31,217 nt of DNA from the IMG/VR virus record IMGVR_UViG_2698536549_000026. One strand, 5' to 3'. Shown piece after piece: positions 2,928 through 28,288 of this stretch. The notes under the pieces are model-generated. The model saw only the letters and a list, made by a program, of their open reading frames with translations. It ran no database searches and was not told where the DNA came from. Origin of the DNA: a virus. Taxonomy: Duplodnaviria > Heunggongvirae > Uroviricota > Caudoviricetes. A program made the position numbers and the translations under genes. How positions within the stretch are numbered: the stretch's first letter is position 1; every line of letters begins with the position of its first letter.

Positions 2928-3524
2928 TCAGCCTGCGTGATGATCCGGCGAAGGGGATTCAGGCCAGACAATATCCGGCGCGTTGCCCGTGTCTGTCCGG
3001 TTCAGTAATACCCGGTATTTTTTCCACAGGGGAAGCAGGGCGCTTTCATCGTCGGTCGCCATATTTAAATCCACGGCATCCTGGAGGATGTTTATTGTAT
3101 TTGTTGCTTCCTGTATTAATTCCCGTTTTTTATTCTCCGCCTCGCTCACCCGGTAAGCCTGTTCTGCTGCTTCATCCTTAACCCATGATGAACCATCCCA
3201 CCGGCAGAACTCCCCGTCCGGTTTTATTTCTGTCACGTTTTCCGGCAACGGTCCCGGCCCGGAAATGAATAAGGCAGCCCCCGAGTCCAGACGCCAGACG
3301 GTTTTACCCCGGTGATCTTCCATGAGGTGCCAGGTGTTTTCGTCCTCATCAAAGATAGCCACGTGTCCTTCAGGAATGTCAGGCGGGGCAATGTCCGTTG
3401 AGTGCGCAGGCAGTCCGGTATGCGGAGGGATCCAGGCATCGCCTTCGCCGATAAATTCATTTGTTCCGGCTGACAGGTTGTAGATTTTAATTGTCTGTGG
3501 GTGTTCGCTCATTTTAAAGGTCAT
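2928..3524 (-). CDS. tfa: tail fibre assembly protein (Tfa / P2 gpG-like chaperone)
   Basis: 198 aa. N-terminus [51 protein letters not shown] and C-terminus [29 protein letters not shown] match the conserved Tfa pattern from memory. Start overlaps fibre stop (TAATG). Confidence 0.85.
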
Positions 3525-5584
3525 TATGCAAGCCTCACGATGTAGTTAAATGCGATGTTTTTGACGGTGTTTTCCGCATTACCGGTGGGGTTAATGGTCA
3601 GGCCGTGGCCATGTTGACCCAGTGCGAGCGTGTGGATGTGTTCGCCAATGCTTACCGAATGTGTGTGTTCCGAAACTCTGGCGATCAGGTTCGCCCCGGA
3701 GCCCGGCCCGTATGCGGTCCAGTCAGCGCTGCCTTCCGGTGACGCGGTGGCGGTTCTTAATGATATTATTGCGCTGAACGGCCCCGCGCTGTTTGTTGTT
3801 TTTGTGCCGTAATTGAAGGATGAGGTCGTTTTTGTGCCAAGGTCAGTATTTGAGACGCTCCCTCCGTGGGTGTGCGATTTGATGCCGTCCTGCTCCTGTG
3901 ACAATACCGCACGACCGCTGGCAGGTTTTCCCTTGATTGTCCAGCCACGCATATCCGGGATACGACCATCCGGATAGGCTTTTGCCAGCAGGGGATATCG
4001 TGCTTTATCGAATGCCTGCCCCACCATGATGGCGTAACCGGCAGGCGGGGTGTCTGACGGCCACGGCAGGGGAACGCCTGCGGGTAACAACTCACTTGCA
4101 GGCAGTGCGCCGATGTCCTGTGGTGTGGGTTTGTTTTTGTCCGTGTAAGTGCGGTACCAGATGGTGCTTTTCCCTTTATTTAAAACAACCCCGGTGAACT
4201 GTGTGCGGAGGTACATGTCGGCAGGGTTTGGGCTTTCGAGACCTGTCGTGATCCTGATGATCCCCCCGTTGATGTCGCCTGATACTTCGATAAGGCAGCC
4301 TCCAAGGCAGATATCACCATAGCCCGTATCAGTGAGCACGCTGTGCCGGGAAAGTGAAATATTGGCTTTGAATATCCAGAGTCCTGGTCTGAAGGCGCCA
4401 CGTTCATTCAGCCATTCCACGAATTGTTCTGTTGTCCAGCGTTGCCCTGCTTCACCCACGTACCCGTCTTTTGCATAAACGCGTGGTGCGCCCACGTTGA
4501 TCAGGAACAGCTCCTTGTTGGGGATGTCCTCACCATTGCGGTTTTTCGCAAGCCGACCATCGGCGTTGTCCATGGCGATCTTTATAGCCTTTGGCGTGGC
4601 TGCCTGTGTCTCTGATGTACTGGTGGTGGCGCTGCTTAACTGTGTGAAGCCCTTTTCTTTCAGCGTTGCGTCCGGGTGGTTGCGTGATTTCTCGTGTTTT
4701 TTCAGAGCGTCCAGCCAGCGGCGTTCTTCCGGCGTTCCTCTGGGGCGCAGGTCAGTCACGTTGCCGTCTTCATCAATGTCAGCAAGGGCAAAAAAATATT
4801 GCCGGGCGGCCTCCTTCCTGTGTGCTTCCAGCAGGATCTCTTCCGTGGCGGCGGGGTCGGCCATGATAATATCGTGCTCCACCGTCCATTCACTGGTGAG
4901 CGTACCGGTCCACCATACTGTCAGCCAGATACGGGACGGGAAGTCTGGCGTGGTCAGCGGTATGTCTTCGGTCAGCTCTGCGCGTAATCCCTCCACGTAA
5001 CCGGTCCCTTTGCAGAGTGACCATCTTTCGCCTTTTTTAACCAGCCAGCCGTCCCCAAAGAATGCAGCGTTACCGTAAATATCGATGTTTTCCCGGCGCT
5101 GGCGCTCGTCCATGGCCGCCAGGCGTGCCGTGAAGTCTATCTGCCAGGTCTGCGCCGGGGTGGTGATACCTGTGGCTTCCTTCGCACCGCTGTACTCCAT
5201 GAGCATGGAACGGACCAGCACATTACCTTCGTTACCGTTGTGGGTTCTGATTTTTTTCTGTGTGGGGGCGTGAACAATCATGGCCAGCGTGCTGGTTGCT
5301 TTGCTGACCAGTCCCACCCAGTTAAATTCAAAATCACCCAGCTCTGCCCCCAGGGTGACCGAATAAACCACGGCATTCTCATTCACCACGCCGGTTTTGC
5401 CAACGGCCTGGCGGTGAACAATCTGATCTTCAGGTGGCAGGGTTTCGTCGGGGGATACCGGTGTTTCCGGGTTGAGGTCCGGGACGTTTGCAAAAACAAA
5501 CTCATCCAGCACAACGGGGGTGCCTTCCGCCGCCTGCTGTGCCTTGAGCCGGATAAAGGCGCTGGTAATTACAGATTTCGCCAT
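3524..5584 (-). CDS. tail fibre protein, lambda Stf / P2 gpH-like
   Basis: 686 aa. Contains [40 protein letters not shown] (conserved fibre collar motif) and a C-terminal receptor-binding region [31 protein letters not shown] ... [18 protein letters not shown] typical of Stf/gp37-like fibres. Confidence 0.9.
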
Positions 5585-5606
5585 AAAGTCATACTCCTTC
5601 AGTCAT

Positions 5607-6155
5607 TCACTCTGCCCTGGCCGTCCAGCAGATATACTCCCCTTCGTATGCGCCATAATGGATGATGAAGGGGTTAAGGGTTTCCACCTCAAAACGGTAA
5701 CGGCGGCATGTCCTGCCATATTTGCGGATGATCTCCAGAAGAAGATCGCTGTTGTCGGCTATCTGGCTGTCTGTCACCTGCACCAGGATCACATCCCAGT
5801 CCACGCCGGGCTTGCGCTCCTGCAACTCCACATGTCCAATGCCCAGCCGTTCAAAAATGGCAATAAATCCTGCCACCTCTCCGGCGTCCTGTGCATTGAC
5901 AAAGGCGTGGGCGATACGGCGGCGGTACAGTGATGTGGGTTCACCTTTAAAACGGGTGATGTCCCGCTCCCATGCCAGTAAATCAAGTACGGGCTCTGCA
6001 CATGTCATGGGGTCAAACTGGCGCACGGGCCAGGTGATCCATTCCCATACGCGGGACCAGAACGCCTGCGCGGCCCGCAGCAGTTTGTCGGGTTCCCCCC
6101 TGTCCATCCAGGAGGGCAGTTTCAGCGAGCGAAGTCGCTGCAAAAAGTCATTCAA
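5607..6155 (-). CDS. baseplate/tail protein (P2 gpI-like)
   Basis: 182-aa ORF between baseplate J-like gene and fibre gene, the position of P2 gpI and of YmfQ-type genes in e14-type tails. Assignment by synteny and size. Confidence 0.55.
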   Translation of the reverse strand: MNDFLQRLRSLKLPSWMDRGEPDKLLRAAQAFWSRVWEWITWPVRQFDPMTCAEPVLDLLAWERDITRFKGEPTSLYRRRIAHAFVNAQDAGEVAGFIAIFERLGIGHVELQERKPGVDWDVILVQVTDSQIADNSDLLLEIIRKYGRTCRRYRFEVETLNPFIIHYGAYEGEYICWTARAE

Positions 6156-7332
6156 TGACCACCTCCACTGTCAGGGATTCGAGCCGTGGCACGGCCAGAT
6201 CGCTGATGATGTCTTCCAGTGAAAACTGAACCGAAGCCACCACCGGGAAGGTCTGATGAATTTCCTTGCCCAGCGTGGAAAACGAAAAGCGCGAATAGGG
6301 CCAGACTTTTTTCACATTAAAGCGGGCGTTCTCCCGAAAAGCGCAGCGTATCAGGTCGCTGATATCCTGTTTCAGCCCTTCCGCGCCGTCCGGTGGCAGG
6401 GTGGTTGAGCTTCTGATGTATACGGTGACGTCCAGACGGTGACGCGTCTCCGGCATGGCGAAACACTGCAAATCATCCCCGTGTCCGTGGTGCCCCTCTT
6501 CGTTGATGTAGCGGTTGACTGCTTCAATGAAAGGGGCAGAGGCCTCGCCGCTGTCCAGTAACAGGTAGGCGTTGGCCGTTCCCGGTCCTCTCGGGGCGTC
6601 GTGCTGAAAGTAGATCCGGTCGATGCTCAGGCCTGCCACGCTGGCGATAAGTCCCCGGTAGACGGCGTCCGTGTGGTAACTGCTCACGAGGTTAAACTGG
6701 TTGCGTATTCTGTCGCGCAGTTCGTCGTCGCTTTCCTCATCGGCACCCGGTACGGTCAGCCAGTCTTCCCGGTTCACCACGGATGCAATGCCGGGAATGG
6801 CAACGGGAAGGATACGGAAGTACCCCGGCGCGAGGTTGTGCCCGCTGCCTTCGGTGGTGGCTTCCACGGGAACGGATGCGCCGCTTTTACCGCTGCTGAT
6901 AAGCGTTTCCTCCGTGACGGCCATGCTGTATATCACGCCGTTAATTCTGGCGGTCTGGACGATGGTCCCTTCGGGGATGAGAACATCATCATTTGCCCTG
7001 GTTTTGGCAAACCAGATCACGCCACTGGCCTTACTGGCCGGTTTTGGGGTGATGTTGACGTCGTGCGCATGAAGCAGAAGAAGTGACCGGTCAGCCGTGG
7101 CGACAAACATACCGGGCAGCACAACGTCAACCAGCGCATCACGCAGCCACTGAACGGGTCGTATGACAATGGTCAGAATGAGCCGCCAGAAGGGACTCAT
7201 GGGCGAGGTGTTGGTGATGAGTCCGGTTTTCTGTACATCCTCATGAAAGAGGGTGGCGATCTCTTCTTCTGTTTCCGGCATACCGCTTTCACGGAATACC
7301 TGATTAAAATCAACGTCCGGTTTCCCTTTCAT
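6148..7332 (-). CDS. baseplate J-like protein (gpJ/gp47 family)
   Basis: 394-aa ORF downstream of tape measure and small baseplate gene, upstream of gpI-like and fibre genes. Size and synteny fit baseplate J. Confidence 0.6.
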   Translation of the reverse strand: MKGKPDVDFNQVFRESGMPETEEEIATLFHEDVQKTGLITNTSPMSPFWRLILTIVIRPVQWLRDALVDVVLPGMFVATADRSLLLLHAHDVNITPKPASKASGVIWFAKTRANDDVLIPEGTIVQTARINGVIYSMAVTEETLISSGKSGASVPVEATTEGSGHNLAPGYFRILPVAIPGIASVVNREDWLTVPGADEESDDELRDRIRNQFNLVSSYHTDAVYRGLIASVAGLSIDRIYFQHDAPRGPGTANAYLLLDSGEASAPFIEAVNRYINEEGHHGHGDDLQCFAMPETRHRLDVTVYIRSSTTLPPDGAEGLKQDISDLIRCAFRENARFNVKKVWPYSRFSFSTLGKEIHQTFPVVASVQFSLEDIISDLAVPRLESLTVEVVIE

Positions 7333-7660
7333 AGTTCACCCTGGTGTTTATGCGTCCAAAATCCTGTGTCTCTGCCGTCACATGCAGCCTGCCCGGTGCC
7401 TCTTCGTTAATGAACACCGTCCCCGGAACCAGCCGTTCATCATCCTCAACCAGGAGGATAAGCCGGGTAATGATGTCGCTGCGCAGCGTCGGGCTGCGTT
7501 CGCCGATAAGCAGGGCGGCGATCCCGCTTTCGATAATGCTGTGCACCACGTCCTGGCCGATGCTGACCCGGTTATCACATCGCTGTGGCTCGTTTCCGCT
7601 GTTCAGCGTAAAACTGCCGTCAGTGATAAGCAGGTCGATGTAAAGCGATGGCGTGTTCAT
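7310..7660 (-). CDS. small baseplate protein (gpW/gp46-like), hypothetical
   Basis: ORF track gives 7310..7681. An in-frame ATG at 7660 forms an ATGA overlap with the tape measure stop, giving about 116 aa. Position immediately after tape measure. Confidence 0.45.
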   Translation of the reverse strand: MNTPSLYIDLLITDGSFTLNSGNEPQRCDNRVSIGQDVVHSIIESGIAALLIGERSPTLRSDIITRLILLVEDDERLVPGTVFINEEAPGRLHVTAETQDFGRINTRVNYERETGR

Positions 7661-9843
7661 CCCGCGTAAAGCTCCGTCCATTCATCCAGTTGCCCCGGCG
7701 TCATCGGGTTCTGCGTGTTGATTGTCAGATTGCCGAACGTCCGGCTGTTGTCGATACGGGTTGAGGTGTCCGTGCGTATCTGGTTGCGTATGCCTCCGGG
7801 TGGCAGCTCTGCGCTGATGCGGTTGCCTGCCAGTGCCGGGACGGCGGTTTCTGCAATCTGCGGAGGTACGGTGCTGCCTGTTGCGCCCCGCGTCATGGTG
7901 TTCACCTGCTCCGTGGGCTTCATGTCGATACTGATACCGGGGATTTTGTTCAGCTTTTCCGCAAGCCAGTTCCACGTCCGGTTAAACGAGTTTTTAATGA
8001 CGTTCCATAAGTCCCCGAAGACGTTACCGATGATCCCCGCCATTTTCCGGAAGGATTCGACCGGGGCGGTCGGGTCAAATGCAGCCACCACGTCCTGCCA
8101 CCCTCTGATGACGATGGCGAAGATGTCGATCAGGGTTCTGATCACGCTGATAACCACCTCCAGCGCGGGGGATATCAGGCTTACCGCTGCGGCCACCACG
8201 CGACCGCATGTTTCCCCGGCACGGGTGACGCTGTTCATCTGTCCCGTGGTCAGCTGTACCGGTGCAAACAGATCGGAGAAGGCACTGAACAGGGTTTTTA
8301 TGCCCTGCCATACCGGGGCCAGCGCCCGGGCAATGTCACCGAACGCGGCAGTCACCGGGCTCATGGCGTCCAGTGCGCTGGTAAAACCATCAATAAAGCC
8401 GCGAATAAAGGCTTTGATGGGCTGCCAGAACTTAATGGCCACCACCACCAGAGCAGCGATGGCGGCGGCAACCAGGAGGACCGGGGCGCTCATGGTCAGA
8501 AACGACACGCCCGCCAGACGCGCGGCAAGACTGGTGGCAATGATGGCACTGCGTACTTTTGTGAGTGCAAGCGTGTACAGACTCCAGGCTGCCCTGGCGC
8601 CCTTTATGATGGCCTTATGGCCTTCCATGATGAAGCTGAACACACCCAGCACGATGTTCGTGACCGCACCGGCTGCGCCCAGCGCCAGCATGGTCAGCGT
8701 GATGTAACCCAGCCAGCGGGCGATGTTCGGGAACATGTTCAGCCAGCGCACGAACGTCGCGCCGATATCGGCAAAACGGCCAGCCAGTGGTGCGAGAATG
8801 GGGTAGAGGGCGTTACCGATGGCGGCCCGGATGTTGTAGAAGGAGGCCACAAGGCGGTCCCACGGGTCGGTCATGGCTTCCGCCATTTCCGTGGCACGCT
8901 TCATGCCGTCATTACGCCCCAGCGCTGATATGCTCCGGTTAAGCATTTCCTGCTGTCCCCAGAGTTTTTTAATCACGTCCGCGCCACTGCCGAAGGCGTC
9001 ATCCAGCGCCTGTTGTGCCGCCACGTTACCCTCAATGTTCCTGCCGAACCTCGCCTGCAGACGGTCGAGGATGTCACCCATGGGTAAAATCTTCCCGGTG
9101 GCATCGACAAAACTCATCCCCATTTTTTGTGCGGCAGCGGGGGCACTGCGCAGGAATTCCTCATAGATGCCCGATGCCTCGGTGCCCATGGTCCGTGACA
9201 GGGTGCCCAGTATGGCAAACTGCTCTGCCATGCTGACGCCAAAATCCGCGCCCGCGTTTTTGGTGCCCTCAATAAGCTCCTGCATGGTGCTCATTTCCAC
9301 GCCGAACTGCTGAACCATCCACGCGGTTTTACCTGCCAGATCTTCAGCAAACCCCACGGCACCCATGGCAGAAAACTCACTGCGGAAACGGGCACCCATG
9401 GCGGCAAGGTAGCCGCTCGCCTCTTCGCTGCTGACGCGGGCAGCCACGGCCAGGGTGCTGGTTGCTGCCGTCACACGGGGTAAATCCCCGTCGCTCAGTC
9501 CGTCCAGTGCGCCGCGAATATGCCATGCGGAACGGATGATCTCCGTGGAAGACTGACCGAATGCGGTCCCCAGTTTCATGGCCTGCGTGGTGAGGGCGGT
9601 CAGCGCCTGCGCCCCGACGCCTTTGGCCTCAAGCTCGCCCAGCGCCTTCTGCATCTCCCACGCCGGATCCATCGCGGCGCGGATACCTTCGGCCACGCCC
9701 CACAGTCCGGCCACACCCACACCGATACGCGCGAACGCGCCCTGCGAGCGTTCGGCGAATCCCGTCACGGATTCCTGAACCTGCCGCAGCGGGCGGGTAA
9801 GCTGGTCTGTCAGATTGATAATGAAATCCAGCTGGCTGGCCAT
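7657..9843 (-). CDS. tail tape measure protein
   Basis: 728 aa, Ala/Gly-rich with a long predicted helical N-terminal part and hydrophobic segments (e.g. ITLTMLALGAAGAVTNIVLGVFSFI). Directly downstream of the frameshifted chaperone. Confidence 0.85.
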   Translation of the reverse strand: MASQLDFIINLTDQLTRPLRQVQESVTGFAERSQGAFARIGVGVAGLWGVAEGIRAAMDPAWEMQKALGELEAKGVGAQALTALTTQAMKLGTAFGQSSTEIIRSAWHIRGALDGLSDGDLPRVTAATSTLAVAARVSSEEASGYLAAMGARFRSEFSAMGAVGFAEDLAGKTAWMVQQFGVEMSTMQELIEGTKNAGADFGVSMAEQFAILGTLSRTMGTEASGIYEEFLRSAPAAAQKMGMSFVDATGKILPMGDILDRLQARFGRNIEGNVAAQQALDDAFGSGADVIKKLWGQQEMLNRSISALGRNDGMKRATEMAEAMTDPWDRLVASFYNIRAAIGNALYPILAPLAGRFADIGATFVRWLNMFPNIARWLGYITLTMLALGAAGAVTNIVLGVFSFIMEGHKAIIKGARAAWSLYTLALTKVRSAIIATSLAARLAGVSFLTMSAPVLLVAAAIAALVVVAIKFWQPIKAFIRGFIDGFTSALDAMSPVTAAFGDIARALAPVWQGIKTLFSAFSDLFAPVQLTTGQMNSVTRAGETCGRVVAAAVSLISPALEVVISVIRTLIDIFAIVIRGWQDVVAAFDPTAPVESFRKMAGIIGNVFGDLWNVIKNSFNRTWNWLAEKLNKIPGISIDMKPTEQVNTMTRGATGSTVPPQIAETAVPALAGNRISAELPPGGIRNQIRTDTSTRIDNSRTFGNLTINTQNPMTPGQLDEWTELYAG

Positions 9844-9844
9844 G

Positions 9845-10308
9845 TCACCTTCCGTTAAATGCGATCGCTATACCTTCAGCGGTCTTGTTGGCGCGGGTAC
9901 GGGCAAAATATTCATCCAGCCAGATGGCACGGGCGATGCTCTCTTCGTCGTCCGGCTCTCCGGGGAGGTAGTGACGCCGCAATGCCAGATACTGCTCAAG
10001 GGGATTGCGGCGGATGCTTTCGACCCGCGCGGTCAGTTTTTTAACTCAATCTCCAGTTTCGGGGAGTAAACCTCGTTAATCTTCTCGACGATCTGCATCT
10101 CACAGCCCGGATAACGCGCAATCAGGTCAGCCAGTGCGTCGCGGCTGGCAGGCGTCACGATGCGGTTAAGATAGGTGCTCATCGGCGCCACCTTGTTGGT
10201 CATCGTGATTTCGTTGATGAGGTTGTTAAATGCCGTTTTGTTCGGTTCAAAGCTCAGGGTTACGCCCGCAACGGACAGGATGATGGTGCCGGTGTTCTTC
10301 GTGGTCAT
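9845..10308 (-). CDS. tail assembly chaperone, predicted -1 frameshift fusion product (GT / E' analogue)
   Basis: After a -1 slip at A_AAA_AAC (10036-10042) the new frame reads 63 sense codons (LTARVESIRRNPLEQYLALRRHYLPGEPDDEESIARAIWLDEYFARTRANKTAEGIAIAFNGR) to TGA at 9845-9847, overlapping the tape measure ATG (9841-9843). The open frame fills the gap exactly. Confidence 0.6.
10033..10308 (-). CDS. tail assembly chaperone, zero-frame product (lambda G / P2 gpE analogue)
   Basis: 91-aa ORF ending ...EIELKN-stop, directly upstream of tape measure. Final codons TTA AAA AAC TGA contain a canonical slippery heptamer. Confidence 0.7.
   Translation of the reverse strand: MTTKNTGTIILSVAGVTLSFEPNKTAFNNLINEITMTNKVAPMSTYLNRIVTPASRDALADLIARYPGCEMQIVEKINEVYSPKLEIELKN
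10036..10042 (-). other. programmed -1 ribosomal frameshift slippery heptamer A_AAA_AAC
   Basis: Minus-strand sequence GAG TTA AAA AAC TGA at the end of the chaperone ORF. X_XXY_YYZ heptamer in the correct register. Confidence 0.6.
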
Positions 10309-10598
10309 TGCAGTTTCTCCGTGTTTCGTATGGTTTCCACCAGGCTGTTATGCCTGGCGGCGCATTCGGTGTAGCGGCTCGTGAGGGTTCGCAGTGCCGC
10401 ATCAAAATCAGCGCCCGTCGGGCCTGCCAGTCTCGGCAGTGTCTTCGGGCATTCCGTCAGCTGGTTTTCCTGCCAGGGTACGCTCAGCGGCTTCAGCACG
10501 GGCGTTGAACAGCCGGACGTAATCATCAGTAGCGCACACATTGCGGAATACCGGGCGGACGGTTTCCGTGTGAATAACGCGTTCAGTGTGAATTTCAT
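10305..10598 (-). CDS. o-spanin (Rz1-like outer-membrane lipoprotein), embedded in the i-spanin gene in another frame
   Basis: Translation contains MCALLMITSGC (signal peptide plus lipobox-like TSGC) followed by a Pro-rich region. Overlaps 10408-10598 of the Rz-like gene out of frame. Start may be the internal ATG at 10541. Confidence 0.55.
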   Translation of the reverse strand: MKFTLNALFTRKPSARYSAMCALLMITSGCSTPVLKPLSVPWQENQLTECPKTLPRLAGPTGADFDAALRTLTSRYTECAARHNSLVETIRNTEKLQ

Positions 10599-10794
10599 TG
10601 CCCTTTAACGCCTCCAGCCGTTTTTCCAGTATGCGGGCGGACTGCTGCCCGGCTTCTGTTACCGCACGTCGCGTGGCTTCCATGGCTTCCTGTTCGGCAA
10701 GCGCCACCCTGGCGTCATGCCAGTCATGGGCCAGCCAGCCCGCCCACATGGCGGCAAAGAGGATCACCAGGCAGCCCGCCACCTGTTTCATCAT
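10408..10794 (-). CDS. i-spanin (Rz-like)
   Basis: 128 aa with N-terminal TM segment (VAGCLVILFAAMWAGWLA) and charged, helical periplasmic part. Immediately downstream of the endolysin with ATGA overlap. Confidence 0.6.
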   Translation of the reverse strand: MMKQVAGCLVILFAAMWAGWLAHDWHDARVALAEQEAMEATRRAVTEAGQQSARILEKRLEALKGNEIHTERVIHTETVRPVFRNVCATDDYVRLFNARAEAAERTLAGKPADGMPEDTAETGRPDGR

Positions 10795-11129
10795 TTCACC
10801 CCGTTGTGCTCAAGGCTGAAATGATTGCCGTCTGCCCGGCTGAAGCGTCCGCCCCATGTGCCGCCGATGGATTCCCAGTATTCCCCCAGCGGCCTGTAGG
10901 CGTCGGTATCGGCCTGGTATTCGCCGTTAATGAACAGGTTGAAGTCCACCGCGAGGCGCAGCGTGTGAAGGCTGTTGCGAATGCCTTTTCCGCTTTTCGC
11001 ATTCAGTGCGGCCTGCTCCGGCGTGCGGTATGCCTCGCCGAAGGTCAGGCGATAGCCGTGCTCCTGTGCCCAGTGGATGAGATCGGCAATCATGACGGCA
11101 AACAGTTGTTGTTTTTCGCTCAGTTTCAT
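10791..11129 (-). CDS. endolysin, peptidase M15-type (L-alanyl-D-glutamate peptidase-like)
   Basis: 112 aa, MKLSEKQQLFAVMIADLIHWAQEHGYRLTFGEAYRTPEQAALNAKSGKGIRNSLHTLRLAVDFNLF...GGRFSRADGNHFSLEH. Matches the small M15 endolysin pattern (H...D...H metal ligands) from memory. Confidence 0.75.
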   Translation of the reverse strand: MKLSEKQQLFAVMIADLIHWAQEHGYRLTFGEAYRTPEQAALNAKSGKGIRNSLHTLRLAVDFNLFINGEYQADTDAYRPLGEYWESIGGTWGGRFSRADGNHFSLEHNGVK

Positions 11130-11881
11130 CAGTCACTCCTCTGTTCCGTCCCCGTAAGACGCGCCTGTGCCACGCTGAAATAGTGGGCGTTCAGTTCAAT
11201 ACCCGTAAAACGGCAGCCCCGGCGAAGGGCGGCCACGCCCGTGGTGCCGGACCCCATAAACGGATCGAGGATCAGCCCTCCGGGTTCACACACGCGCACA
11301 AGCTCATCCATCAACGATTCCGGTTTACCTGTCGGGTGCTGTTTCTCCTGTGGGCGTGTGTGGTGCGTGATGCAGCCGTCGAACGGCCCGGAAGGGGATT
11401 TGCCCAGCGCGCCTTTACTGCCCCAGACCACATATTCGCACTGGTGACGAAAATAACCGGTATGCGGTGTTCTTGAGGCCCGTCCCTTGTTCCATGCCAC
11501 GATCCCCCGCCAGTTAAAGCCGGCGGCCTGGAATGCGTCCGTCAGCGCGGGCAACTGCCGCCAGTCGGTGAAGACCAGGGCGTAACCACCGGGTCGTACC
11601 GTGCGCCATGCCTGTGTCATCCACAGATGCGTCCAGTATTCCCATGAACGGGCGTCCATGTTCTCGCCTTCGAAGCCTTCAAAGCGGTGAAGATCTTCAT
11701 CGTTGATGTATTTGGCGTGGCTGCCCTGGCATGTCCGCCCCGCCTTGTGTGTGGCACCTGAACTGTATGGCGGGTCTGTGATGAGCGCGTCCACACTGTT
11801 TTCCGGCAGCATCCGCAGAACGTCATGCGCCTGCGCGTGATACAGGCTCAGGGAAGGCGAAATGTAAGGCTTATGGGTCAT
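11129..11881 (-). CDS. DNA methyltransferase, beta-class amino-MTase (N6-adenine or N4-cytosine)
   Basis: 250 aa. Catalytic DPPY motif near N-terminus (ALITDPPYSS), AdoMet-binding FxGxG motif near C-terminus (LDPFMGSGTTGVAA). Motif IV before motif I indicates the beta permutation. No adjacent restriction endonuclease gene. Confidence 0.85.
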   Translation of the reverse strand: MTHKPYISPSLSLYHAQAHDVLRMLPENSVDALITDPPYSSGATHKAGRTCQGSHAKYINDEDLHRFEGFEGENMDARSWEYWTHLWMTQAWRTVRPGGYALVFTDWRQLPALTDAFQAAGFNWRGIVAWNKGRASRTPHTGYFRHQCEYVVWGSKGALGKSPSGPFDGCITHHTRPQEKQHPTGKPESLMDELVRVCEPGGLILDPFMGSGTTGVAALRRGCRFTGIELNAHYFSVAQARLTGTEQRSD

Positions 11882-12176
11882 TTCTGCGTTCCTTCTGCTT
11901 CAGGTAGCGGTCTGCCAGACGGCAAAAGCATTCTTCAATAAAGGCGCTGCCCATAATGCCCAGCGCGCACGCCAGACCGACCACTACCAGCTCCGGCATG
12001 TCCGGAAATTTAAACAGCGGAATGGCGGCAACCGGTGCCACGGCAGAGCCCATAATCATTCGCCCGATAAGCAGACGGGCTGTGATGCGATCGCGGCTCA
12101 CCATGAGACGCCCCAGCCCGATGGCAGCACCGATGATAATCAGTTTTGCCAGGAGTGAAGTCTGACCGTCCGGCAT
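11871..12176 (-). CDS. putative holin (three predicted TM segments)
   Basis: 101 aa with hydrophobic stretches LLAKLIIIGAAIGLGRLMV, IMGSAVAPVAAIPLF, LVVVGLACALGIMGSAFI and a charged C-terminus. First gene of the lysis cluster. Confidence 0.55.
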   Translation of the reverse strand: MPDGQTSLLAKLIIIGAAIGLGRLMVSRDRITARLLIGRMIMGSAVAPVAAIPLFKFPDMPELVVVGLACALGIMGSAFIEECFCRLADRYLKQKERRNDP

Positions 12177-12180
12177 GGCA

Positions 12181-12642
12181 TCACCCCTTCAGATCGCGGG
12201 TGTCACGGGCTGACAGGTAGGGCACGCCGTCAATGCTGATAAAGTCCGGGCTTGTGACCATGAACTTGATTTTTTTCGTGGTCTTTCCGGCTTCACCTGT
12301 GCTGATGTTCACCACGTCCGACAACATGGGGACGCAGCCGAACACCTCGATTTTTTCCTCCTCGCTGCCGTTGTTGGCATAAAAGAGAAAATCCTTTTCA
12401 GGAATGGCACGCCACGACCCCGCAGAGCGGGCCACGGCACCAAACTTTTTAAAGTTCTGCGCGTCGACTTCCACCTCCACATCGGCAGAAACAGAACCAC
12501 GGGTGTAGCCGTTCGGCACGCCGCGCGTCTGTGCCACGGCGCTGTTGTCGGTGATGGTGACGGTGGCGCTTTCCACGTGGATCATGATCCCGTCGTAGTT
12601 GATATCAAACGCGCCGCCGCTGATACGTTCATTTCCGGCCAT
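12181..12642 (-). CDS. tail tube protein (by synteny)
   Basis: ORF track gives 12181..12672. ATG at 12642 has a GGAG site about 8 nt upstream and lies 1 nt after the sheath stop, giving about 153 aa. Follows the sheath gene in the canonical sheath-tube-chaperone-tape measure order. Confidence 0.55.
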   Translation of the reverse strand: MAGNERISGGAFDINYDGIMIHVESATVTITDNSAVAQTRGVPNGYTRGSVSADVEVEVDAQNFKKFGAVARSAGSWRAIPEKDFLFYANNGSEEEKIEVFGCVPMLSDVVNISTGEAGKTTKKIKFMVTSPDFISIDGVPYLSARDTRDLKG

Positions 12643-12643
12643 G

Positions 12644-13789
12644 TCAGATCTCCAGTGCTGTGTCGAGTTCAATACTTACGCCAATGGCTTTTGCGCTCTC
12701 GTAGGGGCGTACCACAATGTAAATCTGCACGTGTGTACTGCTGGTCCAGACGATGGTGATATCCCCGTCCTGTGGCGGTTTAACCTCGCCGGGGAACGGT
12801 ACGCCGTTAATCTCCGTGGCGAGCGCCATTTCACGCAGCGTGCGGCTGAAATATGTCTGGCTGGCGGCAATGCTGCCCGGTGTGCTGTTGAGTGCGCGAT
12901 CCGCAAGGCGGGCAATGGCGCGCAGACGTACACGGCGGGAGACTTTATCCACCACGCGCACGTTTTCGATGACCTGGTAATCTCCCCCCTCCACATCAAG
13001 GGTGCGTCCGTCTGACCAGTAGAGCCCGTCGAAATCGTGATACCACATGGGCACGCTGAAGCGTTTGCCTTCCAGCGAGCGCAGCGTGGCCAGCTCAAGG
13101 GGCTGTTTCTTGCCGTCCTGCGGGATCTCATCGTTACCCATCGCCACCAGGGCACCGGTTGCCACACGTGCCGGACTGTCCGCAACGGTGACGGAAGGAT
13201 TACAGAGACGGCCCGCCAGTACGCCGGGCTCATTTCCCCATAAGCGGGGAACCACCATCACGCCAGGTGCTGCCACGCCGTCCTGTATGGCACTGATGCG
13301 GGTGACGTATGCCGCCCATGCCTCATCCTTGCCCGGTCCGGCCACGCACAGCATGAACCAGACAAAACGGCCATAAGCGGACTGAAGCAGGGCGCGGGTT
13401 TCGGTGGCGCGGTTAACGGCATCTTTGGCCGTGATGTCAATGGCAATCACCACGCCCTCGGCAGAAGCAATGGTCTGCGCTTTTTTCACCGCGTCCACCC
13501 ATGCGGCGTTAGCGTCGCCGCCCTCCGGTGCCGGGGGTTTGGGTTCAGACAGAACGTGAACATAGGCAAACCAGTTCTGGCCACCGTTGGCGATTGCGGC
13601 GGTAAGCGTGGATTTAAGCAGGCTTTCATCCGGTCCCAGCACGTCGTCCAGGTCGGTCTCAGGGGAGACGGAAAGGGTGTTACCTGTGTTCTTTTTGCCA
13701 TAGCCCACAAAAAGCAGCGTGCGCTCCACTTCACGGGTGGCACCGTTGAAACGGTTCTGATGGCTTACGGTTACATTCGGCCAGCTCAC
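12644..13789 (-). CDS. contractile tail sheath protein (non-P2-type, by synteny and size)
   Basis: 381 aa, immediately upstream of the tube gene and downstream of the tail-completion genes. No similarity to P2 FI that I can recognise. Confidence 0.55.
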   Translation of the reverse strand: MSWPNVTVSHQNRFNGATREVERTLLFVGYGKKNTGNTLSVSPETDLDDVLGPDESLLKSTLTAAIANGGQNWFAYVHVLSEPKPPAPEGGDANAAWVDAVKKAQTIASAEGVVIAIDITAKDAVNRATETRALLQSAYGRFVWFMLCVAGPGKDEAWAAYVTRISAIQDGVAAPGVMVVPRLWGNEPGVLAGRLCNPSVTVADSPARVATGALVAMGNDEIPQDGKKQPLELATLRSLEGKRFSVPMWYHDFDGLYWSDGRTLDVEGGDYQVIENVRVVDKVSRRVRLRAIARLADRALNSTPGSIAASQTYFSRTLREMALATEINGVPFPGEVKPPQDGDITIVWTSSTHVQIYIVVRPYESAKAIGVSIELDTALEI

Positions 13790-20336: not shown

Positions 20337-21385
20337 GCAAGAAACGCAGAAACAAAACGTCACGCGTGACGAAAAAAGCATTCACGCCCGCACGTGGCAG
20401 CACAATCACGTTTGGTCAGCCGGAACCGGTGCTGACCACCGGCACGGACTACCATAACATCTGGTATGACAACGAACACAACCACTGGCAGCTGCCGATT
20501 AACCGCCTGGCACTGGCGCAGCTCCCGAACCTTAACGCCCAGCACGGTGGGGTGCTGTATGCCCGCCGTAACATGGTGGCGGGGGGCTATACCGGTGGTG
20601 GCCTCACAACGGACCAGATGGAACAGGCGGTATTTGACTACCTGTTGTTCGGCGATCTCGCCCTGCTCAAGGTGCGTAACGTATTCGGCGACGTCGTGGC
20701 ACTTGAGCCGCTTCCGTCGCTGTATCTCCGGCGCCGCAAAACCGGTGAGTTCGTGGTGCTTCAGGAAGGCCCCGCGCTGGTCTATACGCCGGAAGATATT
20801 ATCTTTCTGCGGATGTATGATCCGCGTCAGCAAATTTACGGGCTGCCGGATTATATCGGTGGCATTCACTCGGCGCTGCTGAACAGCGAGGCCAGCCTTT
20901 TTCGTCGCCGTTACTACAACAACGGGGCGCATATGGGGTTTTTGCTGTATACGAACGACCCGGGGATCACCACGGAGATGGAGGATGAGATCCGCGAGAA
21001 GGTGGCGGAGTCTAAGGGGCTGGGAAATTTCCGCAATCTGTACATCAACATCCCCAAAGGTTCGCCGGATGGGGTGAAAATTATTCCGATTGGTGAGGTG
21101 AGCGCCAAGGATGAATTTTCAAACATCAAGGGGATCAGCGCCCAGGATGTGTTTACGGCACACCGCTTTCCTGCCGGTCTTGCGGGGATCATCCCCACGA
21201 ACGGGGCCACCATCCCTAACCCGGAAACGACGCGTGAAACGTACCGCAAGGATGAGGTGATACCGCTTCAGCGTAAAATCATGAACTCCGTGAACAGCGA
21301 TCCCGATATACCGGAACACCTTTATCTTCGTTTTGATGCAGACGCCGGGCATGTGGCGGAAGAAAAAGTGGTGCCGGTCGGGTAA
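20333..21385 (+). CDS. Q: portal protein, P2 gpQ family
   Basis: ORF track gives 20312..21385. ATG at 20333 (MSKKRRNKTSR...) forms an ATGA overlap with the P stop. Size about 350 aa and position fit gpQ. Confidence 0.9.
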   Translation: MSKKRRNKTSRVTKKAFTPARGSTITFGQPEPVLTTGTDYHNIWYDNEHNHWQLPINRLALAQLPNLNAQHGGVLYARRNMVAGGYTGGGLTTDQMEQAVFDYLLFGDLALLKVRNVFGDVVALEPLPSLYLRRRKTGEFVVLQEGPALVYTPEDIIFLRMYDPRQQIYGLPDYIGGIHSALLNSEASLFRRRYYNNGAHMGFLLYTNDPGITTEMEDEIREKVAESKGLGNFRNLYINIPKGSPDGVKIIPIGEVSAKDEFSNIKGISAQDVFTAHRFPAGLAGIIPTNGATIPNPETTRETYRKDEVIPLQRKIMNSVNSDPDIPEHLYLRFDADAGHVAEEKVVPVG

Positions 21386-25223: not shown

Positions 25224-25627
25224 TCCCCGGCAGTCGCCGCCTGAAACGCCGCGCGGTACAGCACGAGAAGGCGCTGGTATTCACCGATAAAGTCTTCTGC
25301 GGTGTATATACCTTTCACGGCCACGCTGTGGTTTGTCATTTCCAGAACAAGCGTCATCTCTGACGACGACCAGCTGATGGCGGTGCTGTCGGTTCCGTTG
25401 ATGTGAAATAAACCAAAACCATCACCATCACCTTTCACGTCCACGCGGTAACGGTCGTCAACGGTGAAGGAGAAATCCCCGTATGTGGTGACGCGTCTGG
25501 TGGCCTGTTTACAGGCGCGGCGGTAATAGTCGTGCCAGTCGTTCAGGCGGGAAGCCAGCCGGGGATCCACTGCCCACATCCAGTTAAAAAAGTCCTGAAT
25601 ATCTGAAAGTCCCTTAACGCTCTTCAT
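25211..25627 (-). CDS. hypothetical early protein immediately upstream of A
   Basis: 138 aa. ATG at 25627 has GGAGG about 7 nt upstream. Overlaps the A start by 13 nt. Function unknown. Confidence 0.5.
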   Translation of the reverse strand: MKSVKGLSDIQDFFNWMWAVDPRLASRLNDWHDYYRRACKQATRRVTTYGDFSFTVDDRYRVDVKGDGDGFGLFHINGTDSTAISWSSSEMTLVLEMTNHSVAVKGIYTAEDFIGEYQRLLVLYRAAFQAATAGECDA

Positions 25628-25695
25628 GAGAACCTCCGGTAACAGACGTGCGGAAGCCTCCCGCGCACGGGTGCGGGATGGCTTCAGGATGTTGT

Positions 25696-25923
25696 TTAGT
25701 GGTGGTGTTGCTGGTTGATAAGGTCCTGCAGTTCTGCCAGGTCTTCGGCCAGATAGCTGAAGACTGCCGCGTAATACCCGGCAGCGATACCATCGTTAAG
25801 TCGATGTAATGCGTTTGACTGCATGATGAAGGTGACAGATGCAGCCCGATGGAGTCTGCGGTTAATTTCAGTGCGGATGTGAAGACGCTCAGCGCGGGCG
25901 CGCTGTTGTTTGCGGTTTGCCAT
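25696..25923 (-). CDS. hypothetical small basic protein
   Basis: 75 aa. ATG at 25923 has AAGAGG upstream. Arg-rich N-terminus, ends in HHH. Confidence 0.4.
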   Translation of the reverse strand: MANRKQQRARAERLHIRTEINRRLHRAASVTFIMQSNALHRLNDGIAAGYYAAVFSYLAEDLAELQDLINQQHHH

Positions 25924-25999
25924 GGTGTTTGGCCTCTTGTAGTAAGTTCTGAAAACTCACCAACCCGAGGTTCCAAGCTCAGGGTGGCGAGACGTACAG

Positions 26000-26152
26000 G
26001 GTTGGAACTACCGGCTACAAGAGATCCCGGCCCGACCGAAGTCGGCCCCGTACGCCCCGCCATAATTCTGACGCGAAAAAGACGTGGCGATACAGTACGC
26101 ACAAAAAAACCGCTGGCGCGGTTGTGCGCTCTTGTAGTCGGCGGGGTTCCAA
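26000..26152. repeat. inverted repeats of a two-part motif (CTCTTGTAG-N6/7-GGTTCCAA) flanking about 105 bp, with a third partial direct copy at 25934-25976
   Basis: 26002-26023 TTGGAACTACCGGCTACAAGAG is the reverse complement of a near-copy of 26129-26152 CTCTTGTAGTCGGCGGGGTTCCAA. Both half-motifs recur at 25934-25942 and 25969-25976. Lies in a 320-bp non-coding gap. Confidence 0.6.
26102..26123 (-). terminator. intrinsic terminator-like hairpin on the minus strand inside the early operon
   Basis: Minus-strand sequence AACCGC-GCCA-GCGGTT followed by TTTTTTT (revcomp of 26102-26123). Downstream of the 184-aa gene, upstream of the 75-aa/138-aa/A genes. Confidence 0.5.
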
Positions 26153-26243
26153 TCCCGGCACCCGTTTTATGAGGTGCGGGAAAACTGTAACCCGACCAGG
26201 CGAACGCTGGCAAGCGGTTTTTTTGTGTGTGCATGATGATCAC

Positions 26244-26798
26244 TCAGTCCGGTAACAGTTCACAGAGCACTGCGTCAGTTGCGGTGCGGCGGTGGTAGAG
26301 ATGAAACGCCGCATCGTCGTTAATGTGCATCTGTATCGTGCTGTTGATGTGTTCAGCGATCATGCAGAACGTCATGTTGTGTATGTCGCGTAGCTCCGTG
26401 ACCAGCTCAACCAGATGATCGCTGTATCTGGCGCAATGGTGGTTCTCACCGCATTTTTTCAGGTTGTAACCCCGTTTACGCAGTGTGTACCTCACTGTGC
26501 ACTCACTGCATCCCACTTCCAGAGCCATTTCCTGTGCGGTTTTTACATGACGGTTTTTAATAAGAAAGGCTATGGCTTCTGTACTCAGTGGTGCTTTTCT
26601 CTTGCGGCCAATCAGCCCACGATTACGTAAAAAACGAATCCGGTACATAACTGCTTTACGGGTTCGCTGAATTCGTTCAGCCATCTGATGTGTGTTGTGT
26701 TCCTGATAAAGCGAGATGAGTAACCGATCTTCCTGCTGTGTCCACGCCTTCACATGTGCCGGGGCTTTGCCCGGTATTCCCATTGGTGTAAGTCTCAT
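26244..26798 (-). CDS. putative DNA-binding protein with two HTH-like segments
   Basis: 184 aa with two segments resembling HTH/region-4-like motifs (THQMAERIQRTRKAVMYRIRFLRNRG and AQEMALEVGCSECTVRYTLRKRGYNL). Early-operon position. Family uncertain. Confidence 0.45.
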   Translation of the reverse strand: MRLTPMGIPGKAPAHVKAWTQQEDRLLISLYQEHNTHQMAERIQRTRKAVMYRIRFLRNRGLIGRKRKAPLSTEAIAFLIKNRHVKTAQEMALEVGCSECTVRYTLRKRGYNLKKCGENHHCARYSDHLVELVTELRDIHNMTFCMIAEHINSTIQMHINDDAAFHLYHRRTATDAVLCELLPD

Positions 26799-26824
26799 CG
26801 CGATAACCTCCGTTACTGTTCCGG

Positions 26825-27037
26825 TTATTCGGTCGGGTTCAGGGTGTAATCAATGGCGTTTTCAATACGGCGTTTAAGGTCCCGGTGGATCTCACCTGGT
26901 GTTACTGGTGCGCCCGGACCGCTCAGCGTTGCCGTGAAGTCGTCGATTTCCTCCAGTAACAGATTGCGGAGTACGGCGATGTGGTGGCGTGCGTCTTTAC
27001 CGGGTTTACGTGCGTTGGTGGTGTACTTGCTGATCAT
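26825..27037 (-). CDS. hypothetical small early protein
   Basis: ORF track gives 26825..27076. Internal ATG at 27037 forms an ATGA overlap with the upstream gene stop, giving about 70 aa. Confidence 0.4.
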   Translation of the reverse strand: MISKYTTNARKPGKDARHHIAVLRNLLLEEIDDFTATLSGPGAPVTPGEIHRDLKRRIENAIDYTLNPTE

Positions 27038-27291
27038 GGCCGCAGCTCTCCGTGGGCTTGTGTTTCTGATTTCCATGCCCCTCTGATGGTCATTACTTCG
27101 CGAACGGTACTGGCAATCGCGGTGATTTGTGTTCCGTCAGCCAGATGGATGTAGAGATAATCAGCGTCTGACGGGCACGGCGTGGTCGTTGTGATCAAAT
27201 GACTTTCCACCATGAACTCGTGGCCCACGGCATCGGTGAAACGCGTCAGCATGGTGGCGGTAAATATGCTGTTCATCGACCTGCCCCTCAC
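27034..27291 (-). CDS. hypothetical small early protein
   Basis: 85 aa. ATGA overlap with the upstream gene stop at 27288-27291. Confidence 0.4.
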   Translation of the reverse strand: MRGRSMNSIFTATMLTRFTDAVGHEFMVESHLITTTTPCPSDADYLYIHLADGTQITAIASTVREVMTIRGAWKSETQAHGELRP

Positions 27292-27566
27292 GCTGAAAAC
27301 TGGCCGGACTGTGCCCGGAGTTCTGCCAGTTCGCGCTCGAGGCGCAGGTTTTTCATATAGAGTTCACTGATGGTCTGTTTTGCTGTCACCATTGCCATGC
27401 TTTGCATTTGCAGGGCCATGTAAGTAGCAAAATGCTTGTCTTTATCTATTTCTGATATTCTTTCATCCAGTACATTGGTTATTTCAGTCAGCGTTTTTTG
27501 CGTCAATTCAATATGCGCCGGGTCGGTAAATAGTTTGTTTATTTCTGTAGGTGTATTGGTGCTCAT
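27288..27566 (-). CDS. hypothetical small early protein, predicted coiled coil
   Basis: 92 aa with heptad-like C-terminus (ELYMKNLRLERELAELRAQ). AT-rich region. Confidence 0.4.
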   Translation of the reverse strand: MSTNTPTEINKLFTDPAHIELTQKTLTEITNVLDERISEIDKDKHFATYMALQMQSMAMVTAKQTISELYMKNLRLERELAELRAQSGQFSA

Positions 27567-27645
27567 AGCTGTTTCTCCGTTTCTGGATTGAGTGAAGCCC
27601 TCCGCAGATGCGGATGGTTTTAATGTTTTCTGTCCGGTTGGTTAT

Positions 27646-27771
27646 TTATTTACGGCGTTCTTCGCCAGTAAATAAAGATTCGATATTTTTCAGCGCTTCG
27701 ATAATTCGCATAATGCCAATCGCCATAAGCACGGAAATAATCAGAATCACCCATGAAAGAAATACGCTCAT
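27646..27771 (-). CDS. small single-pass membrane peptide (41 aa), not in the ORF track
   Basis: Translated by hand: MSVFLSWVILIISVLMAIGIMRIIEALKNIESLFTGEERRK. ATG at 27769-27771 overlaps the stop of the 80-aa gene (ATGA). Hydrophobic N-terminal helix, charged tail, stop TAA at 27646-27648. Confidence 0.4.
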   Translation of the reverse strand: MSVFLSWVILIISVLMAIGIMRIIEALKNIESLFTGEERRK

Positions 27772-28010
27772 GCTGCATTCCCAAGTGCGTATGGCTCAAT
27801 ATGTACTCCGCATTCTGCATCACGAACAAGCTCAGACAGCTCATTGAGAGCATCCAGATCGTCAGCGTAAAAAGCTGCGTCATACAGGCTGCGAATTGCT
27901 CTGGTCAGTGAGTCTCTTGCTGCATGTTCTGCGGCAACTCCTGACATACTCAGGCGAAAGTTAAAGCGCTCAAGGGCTTTATTGATGAGAACCTTATATT
28001 CTTTGTCCAT
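27768..28010 (-). CDS. hypothetical small early protein
   Basis: 80-aa ORF, co-oriented in the early operon. Confidence 0.4.
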   Translation of the reverse strand: MDKEYKVLINKALERFNFRLSMSGVAAEHAARDSLTRAIRSLYDAAFYADDLDALNELSELVRDAECGVHIEPYALGNAA

Positions 28011-28030
28011 TGTATTTCCCCGGAAAACAA

Positions 28031-28285: not shown

Positions 28286-28288
28286 GTA

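Follow-up and report, generated by a model that had tools for sequence, protein, structure and literature searches.

A DNA methyltransferase (MTase) gene lies between the holin and endolysin genes of a tailed phage, with the lysis genes themselves embedded in a tail operon, raising the questions of which of these placements is unusual and what role an enzyme encoded at such a site would play. The window (the whole 31,217-nt stretch of DNA analysed) is a prophage of E. coli that belongs to the HP1-like branch of Peduoviridae (HP1/P2-type). The genes on the minus strand run in the order sheath, tube, holin, MTase, M15 endolysin, i-spanin and o-spanin, tail chaperone, and tape measure, with those of the tail-lysis region as follows:

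12181..12642, minus strand: tail tube, HP1 Orf24 family (PF10772, E = 4.8e-51; PHROG 1182 tail protein; start as in RefSeq)
11871..12176, minus strand: class I-type holin, 101 aa (Pfam Phage_holin_3_2, PF04550, E = 1.2e-19; PHROG 175, E = 5.7e-31)
11129..11881, minus strand: orphan beta-class amino-DNA methyltransferase, 250 aa (Pfam N6_N4_Mtase, PF01555, 98.5 bits)
10791..11129, minus strand: endolysin, M15-family (VanY-like) metallopeptidase, 112 aa (Peptidase_M15_4, PF13539, E = 3.7e-10; PHROG endolysin)
10408..10794, minus strand: Rz-like i-spanin (PHROG 1152 Rz-like spanin, E = 4.2e-31)
10305..10598, minus strand: putative Rz1/LysC-like o-spanin (PHROG 2425, E = 7.8e-22; PHROG 456, E = 1.6e-5)
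10033..10308, minus strand: tail assembly chaperone, TAC (Phage_TAC_10, PF10963, E = 9.2e-31)
9845..10036, minus strand: putative -1-frame chaperone extension, DUF6890 ORF (PHROG 7050, E = 1.8e-23; frame arithmetic)
7657..9843, minus strand: tape measure protein, TMP, which follows in this operon (PF10145; RefSeq annotation)

Lysis genes within an HP1-type tail operon

All five genes named in the initial annotation, a holin, an MTase, an M15 endolysin, and two spanins, are present on the minus strand. The holin combines three hydrophobic segments with a charged tail, the endolysin carries neither a signal nor a SAR segment, and the i-spanin has a transmembrane segment at its N-terminus, with its ATG overlapping the endolysin stop codon (ATGA). 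These three assignments are firm, and the genes together constitute a holin-endolysin-spanin cassette. The o-spanin is a more tentative call, made from weak profile matches (E ~1e-3, below the cut-off, against the LysC/P2_Rz1 profiles), its position, and a signal-like N-terminus ending in a lipobox-like ITSGC. Its gene, which carries no annotation in RefSeq, occupies a different frame from that of the i-spanin, overlapping the latter and extending beyond it, with a stop codon that overlaps the chaperone ATG (ATGA). A slippery heptamer, A AAA AAC (10036-10042), forms the 3' end of the chaperone gene, and the DUF6890 ORF is open from this site as far as a stop at 9845, suggesting that the chaperone may be extended into this ORF by -1 frameshifting.

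The presence of a lysis cassette in the tail operon had been regarded as an oddity relative to P2, however P2 is the wrong comparator. Judged by gene order, a cassette between the tube and the tail chaperone is the normal arrangement of HP1-type Peduoviridae, shared by 65 of 66 IMG/VR relatives, with the window matching the sheath (DUF2586)-tube (HP1 Orf24)-holin-endolysin-spanin-TAC-TMP order found on one strand in HP1, SI7, and ev239. In HP1 the genes run orf23-orf24-hol-lys-orf25-orf26-orf27, the order of the window minus the MTase, and in Salmonella phage SI7 and Escherichia phage ESSI2_ev239 they run sheath-tube-holin-endolysin-spanin-TAC-(small ORF)-TMP, as in the window. The tube and endolysin of SI7 are 85-86% identical to those of the window (86% for the endolysin), and the holins and M15 endolysins of the two belong to the same families. 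Unlike the window, HP1, SI7, and ESSI2_ev239 all have no gene at the holin/endolysin junction, with the holin and endolysin genes of SI7 overlapping by 14 nt. The HP1-type branch comprises here the genera Hpunavirus, Irrigatiovirus, and Evevirus. A megablast search with this region found no match among 50,697 phage records, the nearest sequenced phages being relatives at the protein level only.

The peculiarity of the window is thus the MTase, and not the position of the cassette. Among 5,426 complete E. coli genomes the gene was found in 12, and among 80 HP1-like IMG/VR loci at one, and the distance from tube to endolysin is 100-400 nt in 65 of the 66 HP1-like IMG/VR loci, reaching ~1000 nt only in the MTase-bearing locus L181.

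An orphan beta-class methyltransferase

The MTase scores far above the Pfam N6_N4_Mtase cut-off of 26.7 bits, and matches PHROG 67 (E = 2.1e-70) and the PADLOC model MTase_II (E = 1.2e-61). Its DPPY motif (residues 36-39) lies ahead of DPFMGSG (residues 206-212, with FMGSG at 208-212), and since motif IV precedes motif I the enzyme belongs to the beta class, as first proposed. A pseudogene with mutated catalytic motifs had also been considered, however all family-invariant residues are intact, with DPPY and FMGSG both occupying columns that are invariant across an alignment of 22 sequences. The GC content of the gene (0.600) and its GC3 (0.685) match those of neighbouring genes. The lack of a restriction partner is likewise borne out across the window, in which neither a restriction endonuclease nor a second MTase was found; ten otherwise unassigned larger ORFs were scanned with no match to a nuclease or defence gene, and RefSeq describes the other genes as structural or regulatory, the MTase itself being flanked by the holin and endolysin.

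The AlphaFold2 model of the enzyme (pLDDT 82) adopts a class I MTase fold, like that of solved beta-class enzymes, with a fold search giving TM-scores of 0.75 for CcrM and 0.70-0.73 for M.BceJIV. Whilst fold and motif order are common to the MTase and CcrM (GANTC, 6PBD), M.BceJIV (GTWWAC, 8URK), and M1.HpyAVI (5HEK), with TM-scores of 0.63-0.75, the sequence identity to these enzymes is only 21-26% and the loop formed by residues 46-67, after DPPY, is unmodelled, so that their specificities are not transferable. The enzyme also falls below the NCBIfam equivalog cut-offs for CcrM (104.9 against 244 bits), YhdJ (85.9 against 830 bits), and PRK13699 (60.4 against 292 bits).

The MTase is a member of a very large phage-borne family; the gene is of a common type, and it is its location that is unusual. 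Family members in late operons adjoin lysis, packaging, or tail genes, with the orders TAC-DUF6890-MTase-TMP in an HP1-like locus (L109), GH108 endolysin-MTase-sheath-tube in P2-like loci (L099, L100, L102), and endolysin ... MTase-terminase or portal in E. coli and Salmonella phages. In Burkholderia phage KS5, a Com-MTase pair (gp21/gp20) lies in the tail cluster, directly upstream of the sheath and tube (Lynch et al. 2010, PMC3091744). The MTase gp27 of Burkholderia phage phiE125, which directly follows Rz/Rz1, proved unrelated in sequence. Text searches for a holin-MTase-endolysin arrangement found no paper reporting one, and those for host-strain methylomes and the specificity of Bpm yielded nothing usable.

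Fit between holin and endolysin, and a sibling prophage

Three further features bear on how the gene is seated at the junction:

11889..11894, minus strand: candidate Shine-Dalgarno-like AAGGAA for the MTase, in the 3' end of the holin gene (from the sequence)
11136..11140, minus strand: candidate Shine-Dalgarno-like AGGAG for the endolysin, in the 3' end of the MTase gene (from the sequence)
11830..11881, minus strand: 5'-terminal 52 nt of the MTase ORF, the sole part kept in sibling prophage L179 (alignment; 4 substitutions)

Gaps and overlaps along the cassette measure 4, -11, -1, -4, and -4 nt, beginning with the 4 nt between the tube stop and the holin start. The MTase start overlaps the last 11 nt of the holin gene, with AAGGAA lying 7 nt upstream of the ATG (11881), and base 11129 is common to the MTase TGA and the endolysin ATG (TGATG). 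The position of the MTase ATG in the holin frame (..AAT G..) is that of the endolysin ATG in SI7. This spacing leaves no room for a promoter, and scans for sigma-70 promoters and terminators gave motifs at chance level with no excess, making the co-transcription with late genes claimed in the initial annotation likely. Dyads of the form TGT-N12-ACA, the P2 late-promoter type, number 8 against 6 expected; the one inside the holin gene (11999-12016) could permit separate transcription of the MTase, though such dyads occur at chance frequency. RNA structure at the MTase and endolysin starts shows no extra stability compared with shuffled sequences (z = 0.03 and 2.28 respectively), so that it is only the overlap geometry that argues for coupling of the MTase to the holin.

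A sibling prophage, L179, is ~99% identical to the window yet lacks the MTase gene save for the 52 nt listed above, with 10-16 nt at its right junction unlike the window. These 52 nt code for the L-x-L-Y strand conserved in the family, correctly spaced relative to DPPY, favouring a deletion in L179 over ancestral absence. The existence of this sibling further indicates that the MTase is dispensable. A search for a Hok-Com-MTase relic beside the hok genes that flank the prophage in strain JNEC-KY174 gave no significant match.

Role of the methyltransferase and comparison with known systems

We consider it probable that the gene encodes a late lytic orphan N6-adenine MTase, coupled to the holin, that protects progeny phage DNA from restriction. 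In this model, the holin/endolysin junction would have taken up a 250-aa orphan beta-class amino-MTase in the lineage of the window. Having no promoter, terminator, or Com of its own, the gene would be transcribed only within the late sheath-tube-lysis-tail message and translated by coupling to the holin through the 11-nt overlap and its AAGGAA, with the endolysin ATG overlapping its own stop codon. The enzyme would be made only in the final phase of lytic growth, methylating phage DNA after its replication, as well as host DNA, ahead of packaging, and virions carrying this methylation would be guarded in the next host against restriction systems of matching specificity.

A rather unlikely alternative is that the enzyme is an adenine MTase of relaxed specificity, possibly toxic and analogous to Mu Mom or M.EcoGII, for which coupling to the holin replaces gating by Com in a slot that has been selected. 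The nearest homologues (63-73% identity), from E. coli, Salmonella, and Yersinia, each follow a Zn_ribbon_Com ORF, which either runs into the MTase start or stops immediately ahead of it, and Com adjoins the MTase at 19 of 125 family loci, as also in KS5 and Smp131; most family loci, however, have neither Com nor lysis neighbours. In the window the gene upstream is the holin rather than a Com controller, and two Com seeds searched against all six frames of the window matched only at E values above 1. A holin-MTase-GH24 endolysin-spanin order with 4-nt overlaps recurs in a Salmonella Mu-like prophage (P0011; loci L010-L012 and L097), where a 250-aa MTase of the same family (60% identity) fills the same holin/endolysin slot as in the window, whereas the holin (PHROG 20) and GH24 endolysin of this phage, which carries Mor, GemA, and DUF1804, are unrelated to those of the window. 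As the window MTase is nearer to the Com-linked enzymes, the two placements look independent. Furthermore, non-specific MTases adjoin the lysis cassette in Serratia phage OS31, with p25 directly before it (PMC7556043), and M.EcoGII is deleterious when expressed (PMC5778455).

Against relaxed specificity, the window MTase lies outside the characterised non-specific families. Kinship with Hia5/Hin1523 was ruled out, these enzymes being alpha-class with DPPY near residue 194 (PMC3299994), and membership of the M.EcoGII type was rejected with phiP27 L24 (352 aa), a cited homologue of the non-specific OS31 p25 and taken as M.EcoGII-type by size and class, aligning at the motif regions only (E = 9e-10). 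The best PADLOC model is additionally an ordinary Type II MTase cluster, and the MTase start codon lacks special RNA structure. A stronger form of this reading, which we regard as doubtful, holds that the junction is a selected MTase slot where coupling replaces Com and confines an enzyme that is harmful, and possibly of relaxed specificity, to the minutes preceding lysis, with endolysin synthesis needing ribosomes to pass through the MTase and the recurrence in Salmonella representing convergence.

Progeny-DNA protection would be unchanged were the target N4-cytosine rather than N6-adenine. The initial annotation had proposed an HHpred-type comparison to assign the subfamily, however fold comparison does not separate the two, with CcrM (N6A) ranked first, the N4C enzyme 8s9m second, and M.PvuII within the top 15, and the Pfam N6_N4_Mtase family spans both chemistries. 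Sequence E-values, in contrast, are 6-8 orders of magnitude better for N6A structures (CcrM 4e-22, M.BceJIV 1e-20, and M1.HpyAVI 3e-20, against 5e-14 for N4C enzymes). A motif IV of DPPY is typical of N6A enzymes, with N4C enzymes usually having S/T-PP-F/Y, and the JGI and BPP-1 Bpm annotations give adenine as the putative target. The sequence comparisons point to adenine as the most likely target base, and a cytosine target appears quite improbable.

Dam methylation acts at P1 pac and at the Mu mom promoter, and the gene lies directly upstream of terminase genes in several enterobacterial relatives, however a role in the phage programme itself, be it packaging initiation, late gene control, or the epigenetic effect on the lysogen initially entertained, is highly improbable, since the gene is missing from the ~99%-identical L179 and, at this position, from every other HP1-like relative examined, arguing that it is not integral to packaging or regulation, and since its place within a late operon makes expression in the lysogen unlikely.

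The proposed comparison of methylomes, lysogen against deletion mutant, would probably yield a false-negative result; the prophage MTases M.EcoGI and M.EcoGII are silent in their lysogen (PMC5778455). The importance of the locus is modest, in that it would represent another way for temperate phages to keep an anti-restriction MTase strictly lytic, here lacking both a promoter and a regulator of its own, and fitted ORF-for-ORF into a lysis cassette. Such enzymes would be invisible in lysogen methylomes, leaving their motifs unassigned. The natural pair of MTase-plus (the window and L181) and MTase-minus (L179) prophages is suited to measuring the effect of a late MTase on host range.

The MTase of the window can be likened to Mu com-mom, M.EcoGII, OS31 p25, and Hia5/Hin1523, which provide late, lysogen-silent DNA modification with broad anti-restriction effect. 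These systems differ from it in that Mom is a modification function other than an MTase, Hia5 belongs to the alpha class, and M.EcoGII-type enzymes are ~350 aa in length with similarity to the window MTase at the motifs only. Among P2-like and HP1-like phages with Com-MTase modules, the enzymes of Escherichia phage Chuche, Stenotrophomonas phage Smp131, and a Yersinia prophage (L008) are orphans of ~250 aa belonging to the same family (48-73% identity), as is the orphan KS5 gp20 going by its published description (PMC3091744). In all four, a Mu Com-type zinc-ribbon ORF lies upstream of the MTase, whereas in the window it is the holin that takes this place.

Lysis genes and prophage setting

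The lysis genes and the methyltransferase gene lie within the tail operon, with every gene identity proposed in the initial annotation upheld by minus-strand gene calls and profile matches.

Tail and lysis genes of the window (coordinates, strand, identity)
12644-13789, minus, tail sheath (DUF2586)
12181-12642, minus, tail tube (HP1 Orf24 family)
11871-12176, minus, holin
11129-11881, minus, methyltransferase
10791-11129, minus, M15 endolysin
10408-10794, minus, i-spanin
10305-10598, minus, o-spanin (LysC/P2_Rz1 matches below cut-off, PHROG 456 match, ITSGC lipobox-like motif)
10033-10308, minus, tail assembly chaperone
9845-9982, minus, DUF6890 ORF, 45 codons
7657-9843, minus, tape measure

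The putative o-spanin is the weakest identification of the cassette, its ORF overlapping the i-spanin and running beyond its end, a typical placement shared with lysB/lysC of P2. In strain JNEC-KY174 the same ORF (20506-20799 of the prophage locus, L001) has no RefSeq annotation, and only the i-spanin is listed, as 'hypothetical protein'. The genes are closely packed, with a 4 nt gap between tube and holin, overlaps of 11 nt between holin and methyltransferase and 1 nt (TGATG) between methyltransferase and endolysin, and 4 nt overlaps (ATGA) at both the endolysin/i-spanin and o-spanin/chaperone junctions. The chaperone gene ends in GAG TTA AAA AAC TGA, which includes a classic slippery heptamer for -1 frameshifting, A AAA AAC (10036-10042), and the -1 frame is open from this site into the separately annotated DUF6890 ORF; because of these two features DUF6890 is probably a frameshift extension of the chaperone and no independent gene, an arrangement known as E/E+E' in P2 and G/GT in lambda.

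The position of the cassette inside the tail operon, as first described, stands, but its supposed oddity relative to P2 does not, since P2 and the window fall in different branches of the family. HP1 has the order orf23 (sheath), orf24 (tube), hol, lys, orf25 (spanin), orf26, orf27, which is that of the window minus the methyltransferase, and SI7 and ESSI2_ev239 are identical to HP1 in this respect. Among 80 HP1-like IMG/VR loci gathered via tube-protein alignment, the spacing between tube stop and endolysin start was measurable in 66, and is 100-400 nt, room for one holin gene, in 65 of these. The remaining locus (~1000 nt) is L181, the window's own prophage with the same methyltransferase. 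Judged by gene order, the cassette occupies the normal HP1-type site, and the methyltransferase, rather than cassette position, is the real peculiarity of the locus.

A 2.9-kb region around these genes is matched at full length (98-99.8%) in 12 of 5,426 complete E. coli genomes, in all cases on the chromosome, with no DNA-level match to any sequenced phage found for it. The tail tube protein is 85% identical to its counterpart in Salmonella phage SI7 (Peduoviridae, Irrigatiovirus), and ~50% identical to those of HP1, HP2, K139, F108, and ESSI-2-like phages. In JNEC-KY174 the prophage is flanked by dmsA on one side, and serS and three hok genes on the other, with RefSeq listing P2-family capsid, scaffold, terminase, and portal genes, an Ogr/Delta zinc-finger protein, a replication endonuclease, Cox, a repressor, and an integrase. 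The 686-aa tail fibre gene, intact in the window (3524-5584), is annotated in that strain as two partial pseudogene fragments (L001 13725-15785). The lysogeny and early end (window 26500-31217) has a G+C of 0.45-0.47 versus ~0.58-0.62 in the structural/replication part, a drop that suggests a mosaic origin for this module. At 25980-26177 (minus strand), gathering-level Rfam matches to C4 antisense RNA (83 bits) and the Hfq-binding sRNA isrK (69 bits) fall within or beside an ORF (25614-26243) with a weak Ash-family match, and together these resemble a c4/antirepressor immunity element of P1/P7 type, here carried by a P2/HP1-like prophage.

The methyltransferase gene as a discrete unit

In alignment with SI7 the holin C-terminus is conserved at the protein level, and the methyltransferase ATG occupies the exact holin-frame position of the SI7 endolysin ATG (..AAT G..), so the inserted unit is one ORF, start to stop. 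A sibling prophage, L179 (IMGVR_UViG_2579778804_000007, 5273-5322), is ~99% identical to the window in its holin, endolysin, and spanin genes. Of the methyltransferase ORF it has just the initial 52 nt, carrying four substitutions, after which come GAGATACCCC and the endolysin ATG. Deletion is the favoured reading, because the retained codons encode the family-conserved L-x-L-Y strand, spaced correctly from DPPY; the right junction carries no clean deletion scar. Whichever the direction of change, the gene is self-contained and dispensable, with L179 its natural minus variant. Its composition (G+C 0.600, GC3 0.685) is like that of neighbouring genes.

The family is large, with more than 5,500 database proteins (E ≤ 1e-30) and 1,629 phage records matching. 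The closest relatives (63-73% identical), from E. coli P2-like phage Chuche, Salmonella, and Yersinia, are all preceded by a Com-type ORF, named for the zinc-ribbon translational regulator of Mu, and lie at a prophage end, sometimes beside hok. The pairing also occurs in Smp131 and in Burkholderia phage KS5, where it immediately precedes sheath and tube (PMC3091744). Just beyond the window's left end (L001 8007-9345), the interval from serS to the last tail gene contains three Hok/Gef toxin genes in tandem, with no Com or methyltransferase relic detectable near them; a Yersinia HP1-like prophage (L008) has a single hok then Com-methyltransferase at the same prophage end.

In a survey of ~125 family loci from genome and IMG/VR collections, Com is the commonest identifiable neighbour (13/124 immediate upstream ORFs by Pfam; 19/125 loci by our own iterated search), with same-strand lysis genes within 1.5 kb in 6 loci, and sheath, tube, or tape-measure genes in 5. 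Salmonella enterica Mu-like prophages (L010-L012 and L097, 3807-5286) share the window's order of holin, methyltransferase, endolysin, and spanin, with 4-nt overlaps on both sides of a methyltransferase of the same length (250 aa) and 60% identity; their two-TMD holin and GH24 endolysin belong to families unrelated to those of the window. The contig index lists 106 blocks for this methyltransferase cluster. Other placements are chaperone-DUF6890-methyltransferase-tape measure in an HP1-like phage (L109, IMGVR_UViG_2636415516_000001, 3039-6325; 44% identical), GH108 endolysin-methyltransferase-sheath-tube in P2-like phages, and between lysis genes and terminase or portal genes in certain E. coli and Salmonella phages. 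In L109, moreover, a zinc-finger ORF of DksA/TraR type separates the tube from the lysis genes. The methyltransferase is a mobile late-operon passenger gene, with the holin/endolysin slot one of several landing sites, used at least twice.

Enzyme class, expression, and proposed role

The protein matches Pfam N6_N4_Mtase (98.5 bits), with DPPY (residues 36-39) N-terminal to DPFMGSG (206-212), placing it in the beta class; it reaches none of the NCBIfam equivalog cut-offs for CcrM, YhdJ, or PRK13699. The nearest solved structures by sequence, CcrM, M.BceJIV (8URK/9C3U; recognition GTWWAC, PMC11380664), and M1.HpyAVI, are all N6-adenine enzymes, with N4C enzymes matching 6-8 orders of magnitude more weakly. 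An AlphaFold model from 22 homologues (pLDDT 82, post-DPPY loop of residues 46-67 unmodelled) retrieves CcrM first in Foldseek (TM 0.75) and an N4C enzyme second. Adenine is the better guess as target base because of the DPPY motif and the sequence ranking; the fold does not settle the base. No restriction enzyme, second methyltransferase, or Com-like ORF was found in the window, in keeping with the claim of no restriction partner.

Shine-Dalgarno-like AAGGAA lies 7 nt ahead of the methyltransferase ATG and AGGAG 6 nt ahead of the endolysin ATG, within the methyltransferase 3' end, and in scans, promoter and terminator motifs did not exceed chance. Within the holin gene, a perfect TGT-N12-ACA dyad (11999-12016) precedes the methyltransferase ATG by ~120 nt, with CATTAT ~50 nt downstream; it is absent at the aligned position in SI7 and ev239, and such dyads occur in the window at chance frequency (8 seen, 6 expected).

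The methyltransferase would be transcribed only within the late sheath-tube-lysis-tail message, late transcription in P2 being dependent on Ogr, and translated by ribosomes coupled from holin. It may then methylate progeny genomes before packaging, so protecting them in the next host. A lysogen methylome comparison would probably fail to reveal the enzyme's activity, for which heterologous expression or virion DNA is suited. M.EcoGII, another prophage methyltransferase, is silent in the lysogen and harmful when expressed (PMC5778455).

In being linked to Com, the nearest relatives resemble com-mom of Mu (PMC3299994), which suggests a need for tight post-transcriptional control in the family, the window gene differing in its lack of Com. 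On this basis holin coupling might stand in for Com, with an enzyme of relaxed specificity, a reading we consider unlikely: Hia5 is alpha-class, unlike the window enzyme, M.EcoGII-type enzymes match it only at motifs, its top PADLOC match is to an ordinary Type II methyltransferase cluster, and RNA structure around the start codon is unremarkable.

The initial observation is confirmed, and its interpretation partly supported. Full-text literature searches found no published description of the holin-methyltransferase-endolysin arrangement. Orphan N6_N4 methyltransferases within P2-like late/tail operons have been described since 2010, and what is uncommon is that here, with no Com, the gene fits exactly, ORF for ORF, between holin and endolysin, and that the arrangement recurs in an unrelated Salmonella phage.
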